From assembly GCF_011045215.1 (NCBI RefSeq), contig NZ_CP049201.1: a DNA stretch of 64,000 nucleotides; one strand, given 5' to 3'. Below, one piece after another: positions 3 through 38,471 of this stretch. Below the pieces are notes generated by a model. The model did not search any database. It worked only from the letters and a program-made list of their open reading frames with translations, and was not told where the DNA came from. The stretch is from Escherichia coli. Its GTDB lineage: Bacteria > Pseudomonadota > Gammaproteobacteria > Enterobacterales > Enterobacteriaceae. Position 1 is the stretch's first letter. Every line of letters starts with the position of its first letter. Made by a program: the position numbers and the translations under genes.

Positions 3-539
3 GTGATGAACGACACCGTACTGGACGGTCGCGATGTCACTAAAACCAACACCACCGACGTAGCGACCTTCAAGTCTGTTAACTACGGTCCTCTGGGTTA
101 CATTCACAACGGTAAGATTGACTACCAACGTACCCCGGCACGTAAGCACACCAGCGACACACCGTTCGATGTCTCTAAGCTGAATGAACTGCCGAAAGTC
201 GGCATTGTTTATAACTACGCTAACGCATCCGATCTTCCGGCTAAAGCACTGGTAGATGCGGGCTATGATGGCATCGTGAGCGCTGGTGTGGGTAACGGCA
301 ACCTGTATAAATCCGTGTTTGACACGCTGGCGACCGCCGCGAAAAACGGTACTGCAGTCGTGCGTTCTTCCCGCGTACCGACGGGCGCTACCACTCAGGA
401 TGCCGAAGTGGATGATGCGAAATACGGCTTCGTCGCCTCTGGCACGCTGAACCCGCAAAAAGCGCGCGTTCTGCTGCAACTGGCTCTGACGCAAACCAAA
501 GATCCGCAGCAGATCCAGCAGATCTTCAATCAGTACTAA
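3..539 (+). CDS. ansB: L-asparaginase II, C-terminal portion (5' end outside window)
   Basis: ORF-track translation matches the periplasmic asparaginase C-terminus (..GTLNPQKARVLLQLALTQTKDPQQIQQIFNQY); runs off the window start. Confidence 0.88.
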   Translation: MMNDTVLDGRDVTKTNTTDVATFKSVNYGPLGYIHNGKIDYQRTPARKHTSDTPFDVSKLNELPKVGIVYNYANASDLPAKALVDAGYDGIVSAGVGNGNLYKSVFDTLATAAKNGTAVVRSSRVPTGATTQDAEVDDAKYGFVASGTLNPQKARVLLQLALTQTKDPQQIQQIFNQY

Positions 540-546
540 TCACCTC

Positions 547-575
547 GCCCCGGTATCGTGCCGGGGCTTATTCAC
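547..575 (+). terminator. Putative rho-independent terminator of ansB
   Basis: GC hairpin gccccgg-tatcgtg-ccggggc followed by T-rich stretch immediately after ansB stop. Confidence 0.5.
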
Positions 576-655
576 TTCAGACTCACGTCCATTGCCAATT
601 GTGATTATGCTAATGATAATCACTGGAGTAAATTATTCCGCGTGAGGGTGTTCCG

Positions 656-1663
656 GTGAAAAAGCAATGGATTGTAGGCACTGCGCTGTTTGTGTTGATG
701 TCTGGTAATGTCTGGGCAGGTGGCGAACCGCCAACTGAAAATATCTTAAAAGATCAATTCAAAAAGCAGTATCACGGCATTCTCAAGCTTGATGCCATCA
801 CCTTAAAAAACCTTGATGCGAAAGGTAATCAGGCCACCTGGTCAGCAGAAGGCGATGTTTCTTCCAGCGATGATCTCTATACCTGGGTCGGTCAGTTGGC
901 AGATTACGAACTGCTGGAACAGACCTGGACGAAAGATAAACCGGTAAAATTCTCGGCGATGTTAACCAGTAAAGGAACGCCCGCGTCTGGCTGGACGGTG
1001 AACTTTTACTCTTTTCAGGCGGCAGCCAGCGATCGTGGTCGGGTGGTCGACGATATCAAAACGAATAATAAATACCTGATCGTGAATAGCGAAGATTTCA
1101 ATTATCGTTTTAGTCAGCTTGAGTCAGCGTTGAATACCCAGAAGAACTCGATTCCTGCGCTGGAGAAGGAAGTGAAAGAGCTTGATAAGAAAATGGCAGC
1201 GGCGCAGAAAGCAGCGGATGCATATTGGGGAAAAGATGCAAACGGCAAGCAAATGACCCGCGAAGACGCCTTTAAAAAAATTCACCAACAGCGTGATGAG
1301 TTTAATAAACAGAACGATAGCGAGGCGTTCGCGGTTAAATATGACAAAGAGGTTTATCAACCGGCGATTGCGGCATGTCATAAACAGAGTGAAGAGTGTT
1401 ATGAAGTGCCGATTCAGCAGAAACGAGATTTCGATATCAACGAACAACGGCGACAGACTTTTCTGCAATCACAAAAACTTAGCCGTAAATTGCAGGATGA
1501 CTGGGTAACGCTCGAAAAAGGGCAATATCCGTTAACGATGAAAGTTTCAGAAATAAACAGTAAAAAAGTCGCGATTTTGATGAAAATTGACGATATCAAC
1601 CAGGCTAATGAACGCTGGAAAAAAGATACCGAACAACTGCGGCGCAATGGGGTGATTAAGTAA
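656..1663 (+). CDS. yggM: Secreted protein of unknown function, YggM-like (GTG start, signal peptide)
   Basis: 335-aa ORF with N-terminal signal peptide (MKKQWIVGTALFVLMSGNVWAG); length and N-terminus match my recollection of YggM; adjacent to ansB. Confidence 0.75.
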   Translation: MKKQWIVGTALFVLMSGNVWAGGEPPTENILKDQFKKQYHGILKLDAITLKNLDAKGNQATWSAEGDVSSSDDLYTWVGQLADYELLEQTWTKDKPVKFSAMLTSKGTPASGWTVNFYSFQAAASDRGRVVDDIKTNNKYLIVNSEDFNYRFSQLESALNTQKNSIPALEKEVKELDKKMAAAQKAADAYWGKDANGKQMTREDAFKKIHQQRDEFNKQNDSEAFAVKYDKEVYQPAIAACHKQSEECYEVPIQQKRDFDINEQRRQTFLQSQKLSRKLQDDWVTLEKGQYPLTMKVSEINSKKVAILMKIDDINQANERWKKDTEQLRRNGVIK

Positions 1664-1678
1664 CTCATGTTAAGTGCC

Positions 1679-1720
1679 TTTGCCGGATAATATAAAAAGT
1701 TATCCGGCAAATTATTTTTC
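1679..1720 (+). terminator. Putative terminator after yggM
   Basis: Hairpin tgccggataa-N10-ttatccggca followed by aattattttt. Confidence 0.5.
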
Positions 1721-3020
1721 ACATTAGCCCTAGTAGCTGTGGAATGAACAAGGATATTTGCGGAATGTAAGTGATCATCATCAACGCTACTAGCAATGCA
1801 GCATAAAATGGCAGCAATGGTTTGATTAAATGTTGAATCTTCACACCCGAGATAGAACAACCAACAAATAACGCACTACCCACCGGCGGTGTTAACAGCC
1901 CAATACAAAGGTTGGCCACCATCATAATACCGAAATGTACAGGGTCCATTCCCAGCTCTTGTGCAATCGGCAAGAAGATCGGTGTAAAGATTAGTACAGC
2001 CGGTGTCATGTCCATAAAGATGCCGACAATTAATAAGACGATATTAATCAGCAGCAATATGATCAGTGGGTTATCAGAAATCCTCATCAATGCGTCGCTG
2101 ATCATATAAGGAATATCAGCATTGGTCATTGCCCAGGACATGCCCACGGAAAAACCGATCAACAGTAATACAATCGAAGTGGTAACAACCGATTCCAGAA
2201 TCAGTTTGGGTAAATCGCGCCATTTCACTTCCCGGTAAATCAGCACCGAGAGAATAAATGTGTAGACAACGGCAATTGCTGACGCTTCAGTTGCGGTAAA
2301 AATGCCGCCCAGAATGCCGCCCATCACAATGAACACCAGAAGCAAACTTGGTAGGGCATCCAGAAACGCTTTACAGGCCTGAGCAAAGGTTGCTCTATCT
2401 GAAAGTGGGTAACCACGGCGTTTAGCAATAATGGCGCAGACAACCATTACCGCGAGCCCCATTAAGATCCCTGGCAAATATCCGGCCATAAATAGCGATG
2501 CTACGGAAACGCCGCCAGCGGTCAGGGAAAACACAATTAACACGTTTGAGGGCGGTATCAGTAATCCAGTAATACAGGATGAGACGTTTACAGCGGTAGA
2601 AAATGCCGGATCATAACCTTCTTTGGTCTGAATGGGATTAAGTGTGCCACCAACGGCAGCAGCTGCCGCAACGGCTGAACCAGAAATGGAACCAAACATC
2701 ATATTCGCCAGGACGTTCACATGACCAAGCGAACCAGGAACGCGGCCAACCATTACCTGGGCGAGGTTAATCAAACGTATCGCAATACCGCCGCTGTTCA
2801 TCAGCGTTCCGGCAAAGATGAAAAAGGGGATTGCCAACAGGGCAAAGTTATCCAGTCCATTAGCCAGTCGTTGCGAAACAGTGATTGCCGCGATATCCCA
2901 GGGAAACATCAAAAGCAATGAAGCTACAGTGGCAATACCGATTGAGAACGAAATGGGCACACCAATAAAGACCAGCACAAAAAAACAGCCAAACAGTGTA
3001 ATCGCGATATAACTATCCAT
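1719..3020 (-). CDS. TRAP transporter large permease subunit (DctM family)
   Basis: 433-aa highly hydrophobic multi-TM protein; tightly coupled to the DctQ-like and DctP-like genes upstream on the same strand; family assignment from sequence character and operon context, no HMM run. Confidence 0.8.
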   Translation of the reverse strand: MDSYIAITLFGCFFVLVFIGVPISFSIGIATVASLLLMFPWDIAAITVSQRLANGLDNFALLAIPFFIFAGTLMNSGGIAIRLINLAQVMVGRVPGSLGHVNVLANMMFGSISGSAVAAAAAVGGTLNPIQTKEGYDPAFSTAVNVSSCITGLLIPPSNVLIVFSLTAGGVSVASLFMAGYLPGILMGLAVMVVCAIIAKRRGYPLSDRATFAQACKAFLDALPSLLLVFIVMGGILGGIFTATEASAIAVVYTFILSVLIYREVKWRDLPKLILESVVTTSIVLLLIGFSVGMSWAMTNADIPYMISDALMRISDNPLIILLLINIVLLIVGIFMDMTPAVLIFTPIFLPIAQELGMDPVHFGIMMVANLCIGLLTPPVGSALFVGCSISGVKIQHLIKPLLPFYAALLVALMMITYIPQISLFIPQLLGLM

Positions 3021-3532
3021 TAACTGGCCTCCTGCTCAGGTTGTTTCAGTTGTTGAATGCTTTGGTTAATAAAACACAAGGCATAAAACATCATCACCAC
3101 TCCACTTAATGGCAGAATGATATATACGTATCCCATCGGTATTTGCATAGCGGCAGATACCTGAGATGTTGCCAGTGTTTTATCAATTAACTTCAGGCCA
3201 CCAGTCACAATGACCGAACCGGCAAAACCTAAAATGAGAACGTTAATGACTATACTAAGAAGTAATTGCTTGCGTTTATTCAAGGCGAGAGCAAATAAAT
3301 CAATAGAGAGATGTCGCTGCGCGCCGACGGTATATGCAGCACCTAATAATCCTACCCAGATCATCAAAAAGCGTGCCAGCTCATCGGTTAATGTACTTGG
3401 CTGGTTAAGTACGTAGCGGCTAAATACTTGCCAGACTACGCATACAACCAGAGCAAGCATGACGGCGACAGAAAACGCGGCAATGACGCGGTCTACCGCA
3501 AGTTTCAGGCGGTTAAATATCATTGTAAGCAT
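3020..3532 (-). CDS. TRAP transporter small permease subunit (DctQ family)
   Basis: 170-aa 4-TM-like protein between SBP and large permease; start/stop overlap with the DctM-like gene. Confidence 0.75.
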   Translation of the reverse strand: MLTMIFNRLKLAVDRVIAAFSVAVMLALVVCVVWQVFSRYVLNQPSTLTDELARFLMIWVGLLGAAYTVGAQRHLSIDLFALALNKRKQLLLSIVINVLILGFAGSVIVTGGLKLIDKTLATSQVSAAMQIPMGYVYIILPLSGVVMMFYALCFINQSIQQLKQPEQEAS

Positions 3533-36172: not shown

Positions 36173-37252
36173 ATGTCTAAGATTTTTGATTTCGTAAAAC
36201 CTGGCGTAATCACTGGTGATGACGTACAGAAAGTTTTCCAGGTAGCAAAAGAAAACAACTTCGCACTGCCAGCAGTAAACTGCGTCGGTACTGACTCCAT
36301 CAACGCCGTACTGGAAACCGCTGCTAAAGTTAAAGCGCCGGTTATCGTTCAGTTCTCCAACGGTGGTGCTTCCTTTATCGCTGGTAAAGGCGTGAAATCT
36401 GACGTTCCGCAGGGTGCTGCTATCCTGGGCGCGATCTCTGGTGCGCATCACGTTCACCAGATGGCTGAACACTATGGTGTTCCGGTGATCCTGCATACCG
36501 ACCACTGCGCGAAGAAACTGCTGCCGTGGATCGACGGTCTGCTGGACGCGGGTGAAAAACACTTCGCTGCTACCGGTAAGCCGCTGTTCTCTTCTCACAT
36601 GATCGACCTGTCTGAAGAATCTCTGCAAGAGAACATCGAAATCTGCTCTAAATACCTGGAGCGTATGTCCAAAATCGGCATGACTCTGGAAATCGAACTG
36701 GGTTGCACCGGTGGTGAAGAAGACGGCGTGGACAACAGCCACATGGACGCTTCTGCACTGTACACCCAGCCGGAAGACGTTGATTACGCATACACCGAGC
36801 TGAGCAAAATCAGCCCGCGTTTCACCATCGCAGCGTCCTTCGGTAACGTACACGGTGTTTACAAGCCGGGTAACGTTGTTCTGACTCCGACCATCCTGCG
36901 TGATTCTCAGGAATATGTTTCTAAGAAACACAACCTGCCGCACAACAGCCTGAACTTCGTATTCCACGGTGGTTCCGGTTCTACTGCTCAGGAAATCAAA
37001 GACTCCGTAAGCTACGGCGTAGTGAAAATGAACATCGATACCGATACCCAATGGGCAACCTGGGAAGGCGTTCTGAACTACTACAAAGCGAACGAAGCTT
37101 ATCTGCAGGGTCAGCTGGGTAACCCGAAAGGCGAAGATCAGCCGAACAAGAAATACTACGATCCGCGCGTATGGCTGCGTGCCGGTCAGACTTCGATGAT
37201 CGCTCGTCTGGAAAAAGCATTCCAGGAACTGAACGCGATCGACGTTCTGTAA
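36173..37252 (+). CDS. fbaA: Fructose-bisphosphate aldolase class II
   Basis: Start at MSKIFDFVKPGVITGDDVQKVF (359 aa). Confidence 0.95.
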   Translation: MSKIFDFVKPGVITGDDVQKVFQVAKENNFALPAVNCVGTDSINAVLETAAKVKAPVIVQFSNGGASFIAGKGVKSDVPQGAAILGAISGAHHVHQMAEHYGVPVILHTDHCAKKLLPWIDGLLDAGEKHFAATGKPLFSSHMIDLSEESLQENIEICSKYLERMSKIGMTLEIELGCTGGEEDGVDNSHMDASALYTQPEDVDYAYTELSKISPRFTIAASFGNVHGVYKPGNVVLTPTILRDSQEYVSKKHNLPHNSLNFVFHGGSGSTAQEIKDSVSYGVVKMNIDTDTQWATWEGVLNYYKANEAYLQGQLGNPKGEDQPNKKYYDPRVWLRAGQTSMIARLEKAFQELNAIDVL

Positions 37253-37278
37253 GTCATTCCTTTCTGCTTATCTCAAGG

Positions 37279-37301
37279 CCCGCTCTGCGGGTCTTTTTTT
37301 T
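37279..37301 (+). terminator. fbaA rho-independent terminator
   Basis: cccgc-tct-gcggg hairpin followed by tctttttttt. Confidence 0.6.
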
Positions 37302-37317
37302 GCCAAAAGAAAAATTG

Positions 37318-37416
37318 CCTGATGCGCTACGCTTATCAGGCCTACACGTATCCTGCAATATATTGAATTAGCAGGTTTTTGTAGGCCGGATAAGGCGTTC
37401 ACGCCGCATCCGGCAT
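37318..37416. repeat. REP elements (two palindromic units)
   Basis: gcctgatgcgctacgcttatcaggcctac and gtaggccggataaggcgttcacgccgcatccggca. Confidence 0.6.
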
Positions 37417-37445
37417 GACAAAGCGCACATTGATATCTGTCTGAG

Positions 37446-37468
37446 CCCCGCTCTGCGGGTCTTTTTTT
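37446..37468 (+). terminator. Second copy of the fbaA-type terminator hairpin
   Basis: ccccgctctgcgggtcttttttt, near-identical to 37279..37301, on the far side of the REP block. Confidence 0.45.
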
Positions 37469-37610
37469 CGCCAAAAGCAAGGTGATACAGATGAGAAATC
37501 TGTGATCTATTTGGCAAAATTATGCTTTATTGTTTACCCTTGTCAGACTGCCCGTCATAAGGCGGCGGAGTGTATTTCTCCATTTTGAGTCAGTTGAAAA
37601 GGAATATTGA

Positions 37611-38471
<861 letters not shown>

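Follow-up and report, generated by a model that had tools for sequence, protein, structure and literature searches.

A BIME-1 insert between two copies of the fbaA terminator in Escherichia coli, and palindrome-length repeats at the ends of other BIME-1 elements

Introduction

How REP and BIME sequences colonise new sites has been a question since the 1980s. In the current model, a Y1 transposase integrates them next to existing REPs without duplication of the target, and the mechanism of de novo BIME insertion is described as unknown (PMC3333891); according to a 2026 preprint, it is still unestablished (10.64898/2026.03.23.713779). In the BIME-1 type, which occurs as a single copy, a y and a z1 REP are joined by a long L linker that bears an IHF site (PMC3333891). 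BIME-1 elements are described as located 3' and as present or absent among isolates (PMC3333891; PMC1187871, citing Bachellier 1997). Transposases of the Y1/HUH family of the IS200/IS605 type, which are presumed to mobilise REPs, leave no target duplication (PMC3333891, PMC2817692). Small variable segments flanked by repeats, and deletion between such repeats, are established features of intergenic DNA (PMC2884548).

Here, we analysed the BIME-1 copy that lies between fbaA and mscS in Escherichia coli. Like the BIME-1/RIP elements (also RIB) known from the work of Gilson, Bachellier and Hofnung, Boccard and Prentki, and Oppenheim, it carries an inverted Y and Z REP around an L linker, but unlike the typical element it has no left arm and stands between the two copies of a 37-nt duplication that holds a complete terminator. 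With REPINs (RAYT/TnpA-REP; Bertels and Rainey 2011; Nunvar 2010; Ton-Hoang 2012) it shares the inverted REP doublet, the single-strand hairpin, the non-autonomous character and the intergenic location. Whereas the Y1 single-strand model for REPINs provides for no target duplication and for integration at an existing REP or BIME, the targets found here are REP-free terminator palindromes, and they are duplicated. The repeats measure 37 nt at fbaA and 20-26 nt elsewhere, in contrast to the lack of any duplication that characterises IS200/IS605-like peel-and-paste transposition. Comparison with MITEs (ERIC/IRU, Correia, RUP) reveals defined ends, direct target repeats and an internal IHF-type site (putative in our case) as common traits, together with imperfect terminal inverted repeats of about 15 nt (sAGAyTGwTGACAAA in BIME-1). 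The terminal inverted repeats and defined ends of DDE transposons and MITEs are thus present, but the fixed short duplication is not: MITE duplications span 2-10 bp and are fixed by the transposase, while those of BIME-1 span 20-26 nt (37 at fbaA) and follow the palindrome.

Terminator stem-loops have reportedly been recognised before, by Robart et al. in 2007, as safe landing sites 3' of genes for class C bacterial group II introns. Such introns use RNA-based retrohoming and insert after the terminator without duplicating it, whereas BIME-1 duplicates the terminator. The nearest published remark that we found concerns REP dimers located "within small palindromes" in Thermomicrobium roseum and Halothiobacillus neapolitanus (Di Nocera et al. 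2013, PMC3733652); these dimers are described as interrupting the palindrome, with one half of it on each side, whereas BIME-1 has a complete copy on each side. Neither a statement that BIME-1 insertion duplicates the hairpin of a target terminator nor any mention of target duplications beside BIME-1 was found in the accessible literature, Bachellier et al. 1997 (Genetics) aside, so that priority is uncertain.

Results

The window, that is the whole 64-kb stretch of E. coli DNA that was analysed, contains a 358-nt spacer between the end of fbaA at 37252 and the start of mscS at 37611. The region 37150-37700, used below as a 551-nt query, is 100% identical to E. coli strain 88-3493, and fbaA is 1080 nt long in the RefSeq annotation of identical and orthologous loci. 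The features of the locus are the following, with the evidence for each in brackets.

36173..37252, plus strand: fbaA coding sequence, class II fructose-bisphosphate aldolase (open reading frame list; stop codon 37250-37252)
37276..37312, plus strand: direct repeat 1, the predicted proximal fbaA intrinsic terminator (repeat finder, terminator scan, fold)
37313..37443, plus strand: BIME-1 (RIP/REPIN-type) insert, 131 nt, consensus left arm absent
37317..37345, plus strand: Y-type REP (palindromic unit) GCCTGATGCGCTACGCTTATCAGGCCTAC (inverted repeat I1; BIME-1 consensus alignment)
37346..37380, no strand assigned: L linker of BIME-1, motif GCAATATATTGAATT (Rfam ES036 match)
37381..37414, plus strand: Z-type REP GTAGGCCGGATAAGGCGTTCACGCCGCATCCGGC (inverted repeat I2; partial naRNA4 match)
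37415..37443, plus strand: right arm of BIME-1, ATGACAAAGCGCACATTGATATCTGTCTG, consensus ATGAACAAAGCGCACTTTGTCAACAATCTG (motif match at other loci)
37444..37480, plus strand: direct repeat 2, the predicted distal terminator copy (repeat finder, terminator scan, fold)
37481..37610, plus strand: mscS upstream region, unaltered (same sequence in long and short alleles; conserved in outgroup spacers)
37611..38471, plus strand: mscS coding sequence (open reading frame list; RefSeq annotation of orthologous loci)

Application of a repeat finder to 37200-37620 yielded a single direct-repeat family with one member at 37276-37312 (AGGCCCGCTCTGCGGGTCTTTTTTTTGCCAAAAGAAA) and the other at 37444-37480 (AGCCCCGCTCTGCGGGTCTTTTTTTCGCCAAAAGCAA). 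The repeats are 37 nt long each, identical at 34 of 37 positions (92%) and 168 nt apart from start to start. Both contain the hairpin core CCCGCTCTGCGGG, a T-run and then GCCAAAAG; the core has two sites in the 64-kb window, both within the repeats, while 0.10 are expected from shuffled sequences. Repeat 1, which begins 24 nt past the fbaA stop codon, is composed of a hairpin (37275-37295), a T-run (37294-37301) and GCCAAAAGAAA. Its hairpin has nine pairs in the terminator scan and an RNA fold of -14.1 kcal/mol (z -3.8), followed by U8. The corresponding parts of repeat 2 are the hairpin core at 37447-37459, a T-run at 37462-37468 and CGCCAAAAGCAA, with an RNA fold of -9.9 kcal/mol followed by U7. 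Both copies were scored as intrinsic-terminator-like, which on the basis of sequence predicts two intrinsic terminators, each a G+C-rich hairpin with a U-run, in series on one strand. The first-pass annotation of this DNA had already proposed that the terminator recurs downstream with two REPs in between and forms a tandem pair; the repeat finder and the terminator scan bear out this two-copy layout, while the spacing given there (~165 bp) has to be corrected to 168 nt, and the end that it assigned (37468) falls inside the second copy.

The BIME-1 insert starts directly after repeat 1 and is ordered as Y REP, L linker, Z REP and right arm, the two REPs standing in inverted orientation between the terminator copies. 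The second REP was assigned to the Z class as a whole (z1 or z2). Folding of the insert as a single strand gives one long hairpin with -48.7 kcal/mol (z -4.2). It aligns with 26 other BIME-1 loci, and the linker motif GCAATATATTGAATT, of which the 64-kb window holds one copy, is common to all aligned elements; with its sequence conserved as in BIME-1, the linker is a putative carrier of the IHF site. The linker was also matched by Rfam ES036, the CssrF sRNA family, at 37338-37380 on the minus strand; with 40 bits, the match exceeds the gathering score of the family (37.6). ES036 seems to describe a dispersed repeat and not a single sRNA gene.

In the 27-locus alignment, the BIME-1 consensus turned out to be longer than a REP-linker-REP unit, with arms that read (T)GAGACTGATGACAAACGCAAAAC on the left and ATGAACAAAGCGCACTTTGTCAACAATCTG(AG) on the right. 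Over their outer 15 nt, the two arms constitute imperfect terminal inverted repeats; at 12 of 15 positions, the consensus left end GAGACTGATGACAAA matches the reverse complement of the right end CAGATTGTTGACAAA. Of the two consensus outer arms (left TGAGACTGATGACAAACGC, right TTTGTCAACAATCTG), the right one is present at fbaA and the left one absent; the terminator tail stands where the left arm would be. A canonical left arm at fbaA was found neither in 13 metagenomic copies nor in E. whittamii or Escherichia sp. E1V33. The fbaA copy is a left-truncated BIME-1, and the missing arm does not exclude its membership: it is extragenic, lies at the 3' end of a transcription unit, is present or absent among isolates and occurs as a single copy, with the exception of E1V33, where repeat recombination gave two units. 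The right-arm motif was also found to the right of BIME-1 at ybiT, in E. whittamii and at most of the 27 loci. Captured flanking DNA had been considered as the origin of the 28-nt "non-REP" tail; this was rejected, as the tail is the BIME-1 right arm and has a near-copy, for example, to the right of another REP-linker-REP element downstream of ybiT. The earlier description of the insert as two REPs thus holds for the REPs themselves, but not for just REPs, since the insert is a BIME-1 with an IHF-type linker and a right arm. The RefSeq feature table of MG1655 lists no repeat feature for the fbaA-mscS spacer (NC_000913.3 3069808-3070164), although the MG1655 spacer does contain a clear BIME-1.

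Downstream of repeat 2, the segment 37481..37610 includes a conserved block, TGTGATCTATTTGGCAAAA...TTGTTTACCCTT, that is shared across genera. The part TGTGATC..TTTGGCA(A/T)...TTGTTTACCCTT at 37500-37545, 5' of mscS, is kept in the outgroup spacers of enterobacterial genera and is probably the mscS promoter or operator region; the insertion leaves it intact. A sigma-70-like promoter match at 37519-37546 (minus strand; CTGACA, 16 nt spacer, CATAAT; 10/12) is directed to BIME-1 and not to mscS, with a chance expectation of 0.7 in that scan.

The long arrangement was present in 3,725 of the 5,425 complete E. coli genomes with a match to the 551-nt query. In those of the remaining genomes that were sampled, the spacer is exactly 168 nt shorter and has a single terminator. 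The short allele makes up about 31% of the 5,425 genomes, a share that is derived from the query matches, with the short architecture read in the sampled genomes. In the alignment, a short allele consists of the left flank, one terminator copy and the right flank and is free of REPs; its spacer measures 190 nt in E. coli (Citrobacter: 188-192 nt), and the long allele equals this short spacer plus the 131-nt BIME-1 plus a second copy of the 37-nt target. Two terminator copies without BIME-1 were found in none of the genomes sampled. Outside Escherichia, mscS-anchored loci were compared from Citrobacter, Klebsiella, Raoultella, Enterobacter, Kosakonia, Phytobacter, Leclercia, Pluralibacter, Buttiauxella and others. 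Their spacers span 158-218 nt, mostly 174-194 nt, with one hairpin plus T-run and no REP; Entomohabitans is an exception in length (494 nt), likewise without a REP. The ancestral state was a spacer of about 190 nt with one terminator and no REP. Since all outgroup genera examined have a single terminator and no REP, the long allele is derived by an insertion together with a target duplication, and our confidence that BIME-1 inserted at the fbaA terminator in this way is high. The same had been suggested from the window alone, and the comparison across relatives supports it: a single terminator without REPs exists in about 31% of E. coli and is the sole architecture in the other genera recovered, so that two copies are by no means found in all relatives.

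Contrary to what the first-pass annotation had assumed for the duplication, the insertion is not recent, since in E. whittamii and E1V33 a BIME-1 occupies this very position and likewise lacks the left arm. Each of the seven typical long E. coli alleles that were sampled, among them K-12, O26 and O157, combines a derived repeat 2, GCGGGGATTTTTT, with a T just downstream, and the derived GGGGATTTTTT is common to the K-12-type repeat 2 and E. whittamii. In the latter, the hairpin part of repeat 2 has decayed (GGCCGCCAGGATAGAGGGG, ~1330-1370 of its locus), while the T-run and GCCAAAAGCAA are intact. Neighbour-joining trees of 1.4-kb flanks did not place the indel on a genealogy, the haplotypes being too strongly mosaic and outgroup lengths uneven; allele histories were instead read from diagnostic SNPs beside the repeats. 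At the SNP just downstream, most short alleles have A or G and long alleles T.

Read in this way, the repeats appear to have recombined since the insertion. In strain SC467, a single copy with a hairpin of the repeat-1 type is followed by the T of long alleles and flanked on both sides by long-type SNPs; the short allele of this strain is, judged from these SNPs, a secondary deletion between the repeats. In E1V33, terminator and BIME-1 alternate (terminator, BIME-1, terminator, BIME-1, terminator) within a 527-nt spacer, as a tandem unit with a period of 169 nt, 2.2 copies and a 96% match (997-1370 of its extracted locus); this amplification is, to judge by its structure, the reciprocal of such a deletion. 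The window itself has a long-type left edge (AGCCCC) in repeat 2 (37444-37490), while the remainder and the downstream A are short-type, which marks its allele as an apparent long-by-short recombinant with the junction inside repeat 2. Alleles of the window type were found in 977 genomes at an identity of at least 99%. With moderate confidence, these patterns suggest a single old insertion, inherited or exchanged among Escherichia, followed by recombination of the repeats.

Could all single-copy alleles of E. coli be later deletions from a two-copy BIME-1 form that was ancestral in Escherichia? Deletion between the repeats does occur, as in SC467 with its long-allele SNPs around a single copy, small segments flanked by repeats are often deleted (Touzain et al., PMC2884548), and the long form is present in three Escherichia species. 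Even so, an insertion with duplication would still have been required at some time, as all non-Escherichia genera examined are REP-free with one terminator, and the A or G that most short alleles carry where long alleles have T fits lineages that were never filled, or else very old losses. We consider this explanation unlikely. The reading that we prefer, with a probability of roughly 0.7, is that in an early lineage of Escherichia a single BIME-1 inserted at the intrinsic terminator of fbaA and duplicated this terminator.

The same signature was found at other BIME-1 loci. A scan of metagenome contigs for the linker motif gave 120 stretches, of which 102 copies had usable flanks and fell into 27 flank clusters, taken as loci. 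At many of the 27, a locus-specific G+C hairpin abuts the left arm and a near-identical one abuts the right arm. Left and right flanks were scored by local alignment within each locus, with 702 cross-locus pairs as control (mean 14.1, 99th percentile 22, maximum 26). The highest within-locus scores were as follows.

fbaA: 52
yqjF-yqjG (L169): 35
metE-ysgA (L108): 30
katE-downstream (L112): 30
ymdF-rutG (L104): 29
two further loci: 25 each

Five within-locus scores exceed all 702 cross-locus pairs, and seven are at or above the 99.7th percentile, where about 0.1 loci are expected by chance. On the left, the flank repeat stops about 24 nt short of the Y REP, and on the right it resumes about 30 nt past the Z REP, positions that coincide with the ends of the element. 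Hairpins of -8 kcal/mol or below adjoin 17 of 27 left and 18 of 27 right ends, compared with 7 and 6 of 27 in control windows 100 nt away (Wilcoxon p 0.001 and 0.009).

Three further loci were confirmed to have empty alleles with one palindrome each. At metE-ysgA, the element is absent from nearly all E. coli genomes, whose single palindrome, CCGGGTGGTAATACCACCCGG, is followed by a T-run, while the filled contig reads palindrome, BIME-1, palindrome, T-run. The ymdF-rutG locus is filled in 1,734 genomes, and its empty site is a single CACCGCCGGTTACCCCGGCGGT followed by TTTCTG; yqjF-yqjG is filled in 89 genomes and has a single AAAACGAGGAGCTTCCCCCTCGTTTTTT when empty. Repeat length (20, 20, 22-23, 25, 25-26 and 37 nt by locus) is 20-26 nt and tracks the palindrome within 1-2 nt at six loci, with the 37 nt of fbaA as the exception. 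The flanking palindromes share no sequence between loci, and the ends of the canonical element are near-constant, (T)GAGACTG on the left and CAATCTG(A) on the right, within 1-2 nt. In some hairpin pairs, the stem is retained because the changes are either compensatory (T-A to C-G at metE-ysgA) or confined to the loop (L099), which suggests that both copies are under structural constraint. L099, L198 and L171 likewise belong to the loci with direct palindrome duplications at the element ends.

A recognisable flank repeat was absent from the flank alignments of at least 12 of the 27 loci; target duplication is either not obligatory or decays over time. A fixed orientation of BIME-1 relative to terminator polarity was considered and rejected, the katE and yqjF loci being opposite to fbaA. 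Downstream of katE in E. coli 31B19CPO010B, the transposase gene of IS621 (IS110 family; 1-184 of the extracted locus) lies directly upstream of the break in the match to the BIME-1 locus, a position that would be expected of a REP-targeting IS that interrupts the element.

Discussion

How, then, could insertion of an element duplicate a complete hairpin? Fixed ends, terminal inverted repeats and duplicated targets are typical of transposons, but a duplication length set by the target palindrome is unlike the output of a transposase with fixed geometry, and Y1 transposases of the IS200/IS605 type produce no duplication (PMC3333891, PMC2817692). As a tentative explanation, we propose that BIME-1 insertion may be directed by structure, with an extruded target palindrome cleaved at both of its feet, so that the duplication would have the length of the palindrome. 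The palindrome, typically an intrinsic terminator, would be extruded as a cruciform or as hairpins on single strands, and both strands would be cut, each of them on one and the same side of the hairpin that it forms. Projected on the linear sequence, the two cuts would be offset by the length of the palindrome, and fill-in by repair synthesis after joining would duplicate the whole hairpin. On the distal side, the hairpin would be regenerated next to the T-run. In the canonical outcome, the distal copy would keep the T-run, the proximal hairpin would lose it and the element would join the 3' UTR. The obvious candidate enzyme is the REP-associated Y1 transposase (TnpA-REP/RAYT). The mechanism assumes that stems of 7-10 bp are extruded as cruciforms in vivo, and our confidence in this cruciform-foot cleavage model is low to moderate.

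The fbaA locus is an outlier in this scheme: the element has lost its left arm, and the repeat, 37 nt long, extends over the T-run and GCCAAAAGCAA. The distance from the hairpin to the Y REP is nevertheless 25 nt, as at canonical loci, and there is a near-match between the tail of the target, CAAAAGCAA, and the left arm of BIME-1, CAAACGCAA. Spacing and likeness favour an extra step, which may have been either a short conversion of repeat 1 by repeat 2 or a left junction guided by the homology between CAAAAGCAA and CAAACGCAA. Either event would have swapped the left arm for the terminator tail and would thereby have rebuilt a full terminator directly after fbaA.

Hairpins are known obstacles to replication. 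Instead of transposition, a fork that stalled at the terminator hairpin could have switched template: the nascent strand would have copied a BIME-1 elsewhere via microhomology and returned upstream of the hairpin, which would duplicate the hairpin with no need for a dedicated nuclease. The left junction at fbaA does lie in the 9-nt near-match of CAAAAGCAA and CAAACGCAA, with the arm truncated there, and at L198 the left arm is truncated as well; both truncations lean towards this alternative. At canonical loci, however, element ends are nearly constant while the palindromes are unrelated, which speaks for defined ends and not for microhomology, and we regard template switching as a live but rather unlikely rival. 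Still less credible, and close to negligible in our view, is a two-step origin in which the terminator was first duplicated in tandem and BIME-1 then inserted between the copies without any duplication: it would agree with Y1 transposase chemistry (PMC3333891), but the two-copy intermediate without BIME-1 is carried by none of the genomes sampled, and recurrence of palindrome duplication at the element ends of at least six unrelated loci makes such coincident steps implausible.

We thus return to insertion of a BIME-1 with duplication of its target. Taken as a single locus, the fbaA-mscS spacer is an ordinary BIME-1 insertion polymorphism, present in K-12. It is at the same time the most conspicuous case of a recurrent, palindrome-length duplication at BIME-1 ends, and this recurrence constrains the mechanism of insertion. 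Pairs of filled and empty sites are predicted to show a duplication length equal to the palindrome length and fixed element ends. For fbaA, the insertion leaves two predicted terminators in series, and the 37-nt repeats destabilise the spacer, with deletion, amplification and chimeras all seen, a clear example of intergenic polymorphism that arises from small repeats. If the proposed mode of insertion is true, it would represent a way of target duplication that is not described for any transposable element. It would also amount to a landing strategy that rebuilds the terminator, and would provide a testable handle on the spread of REPs and BIMEs.
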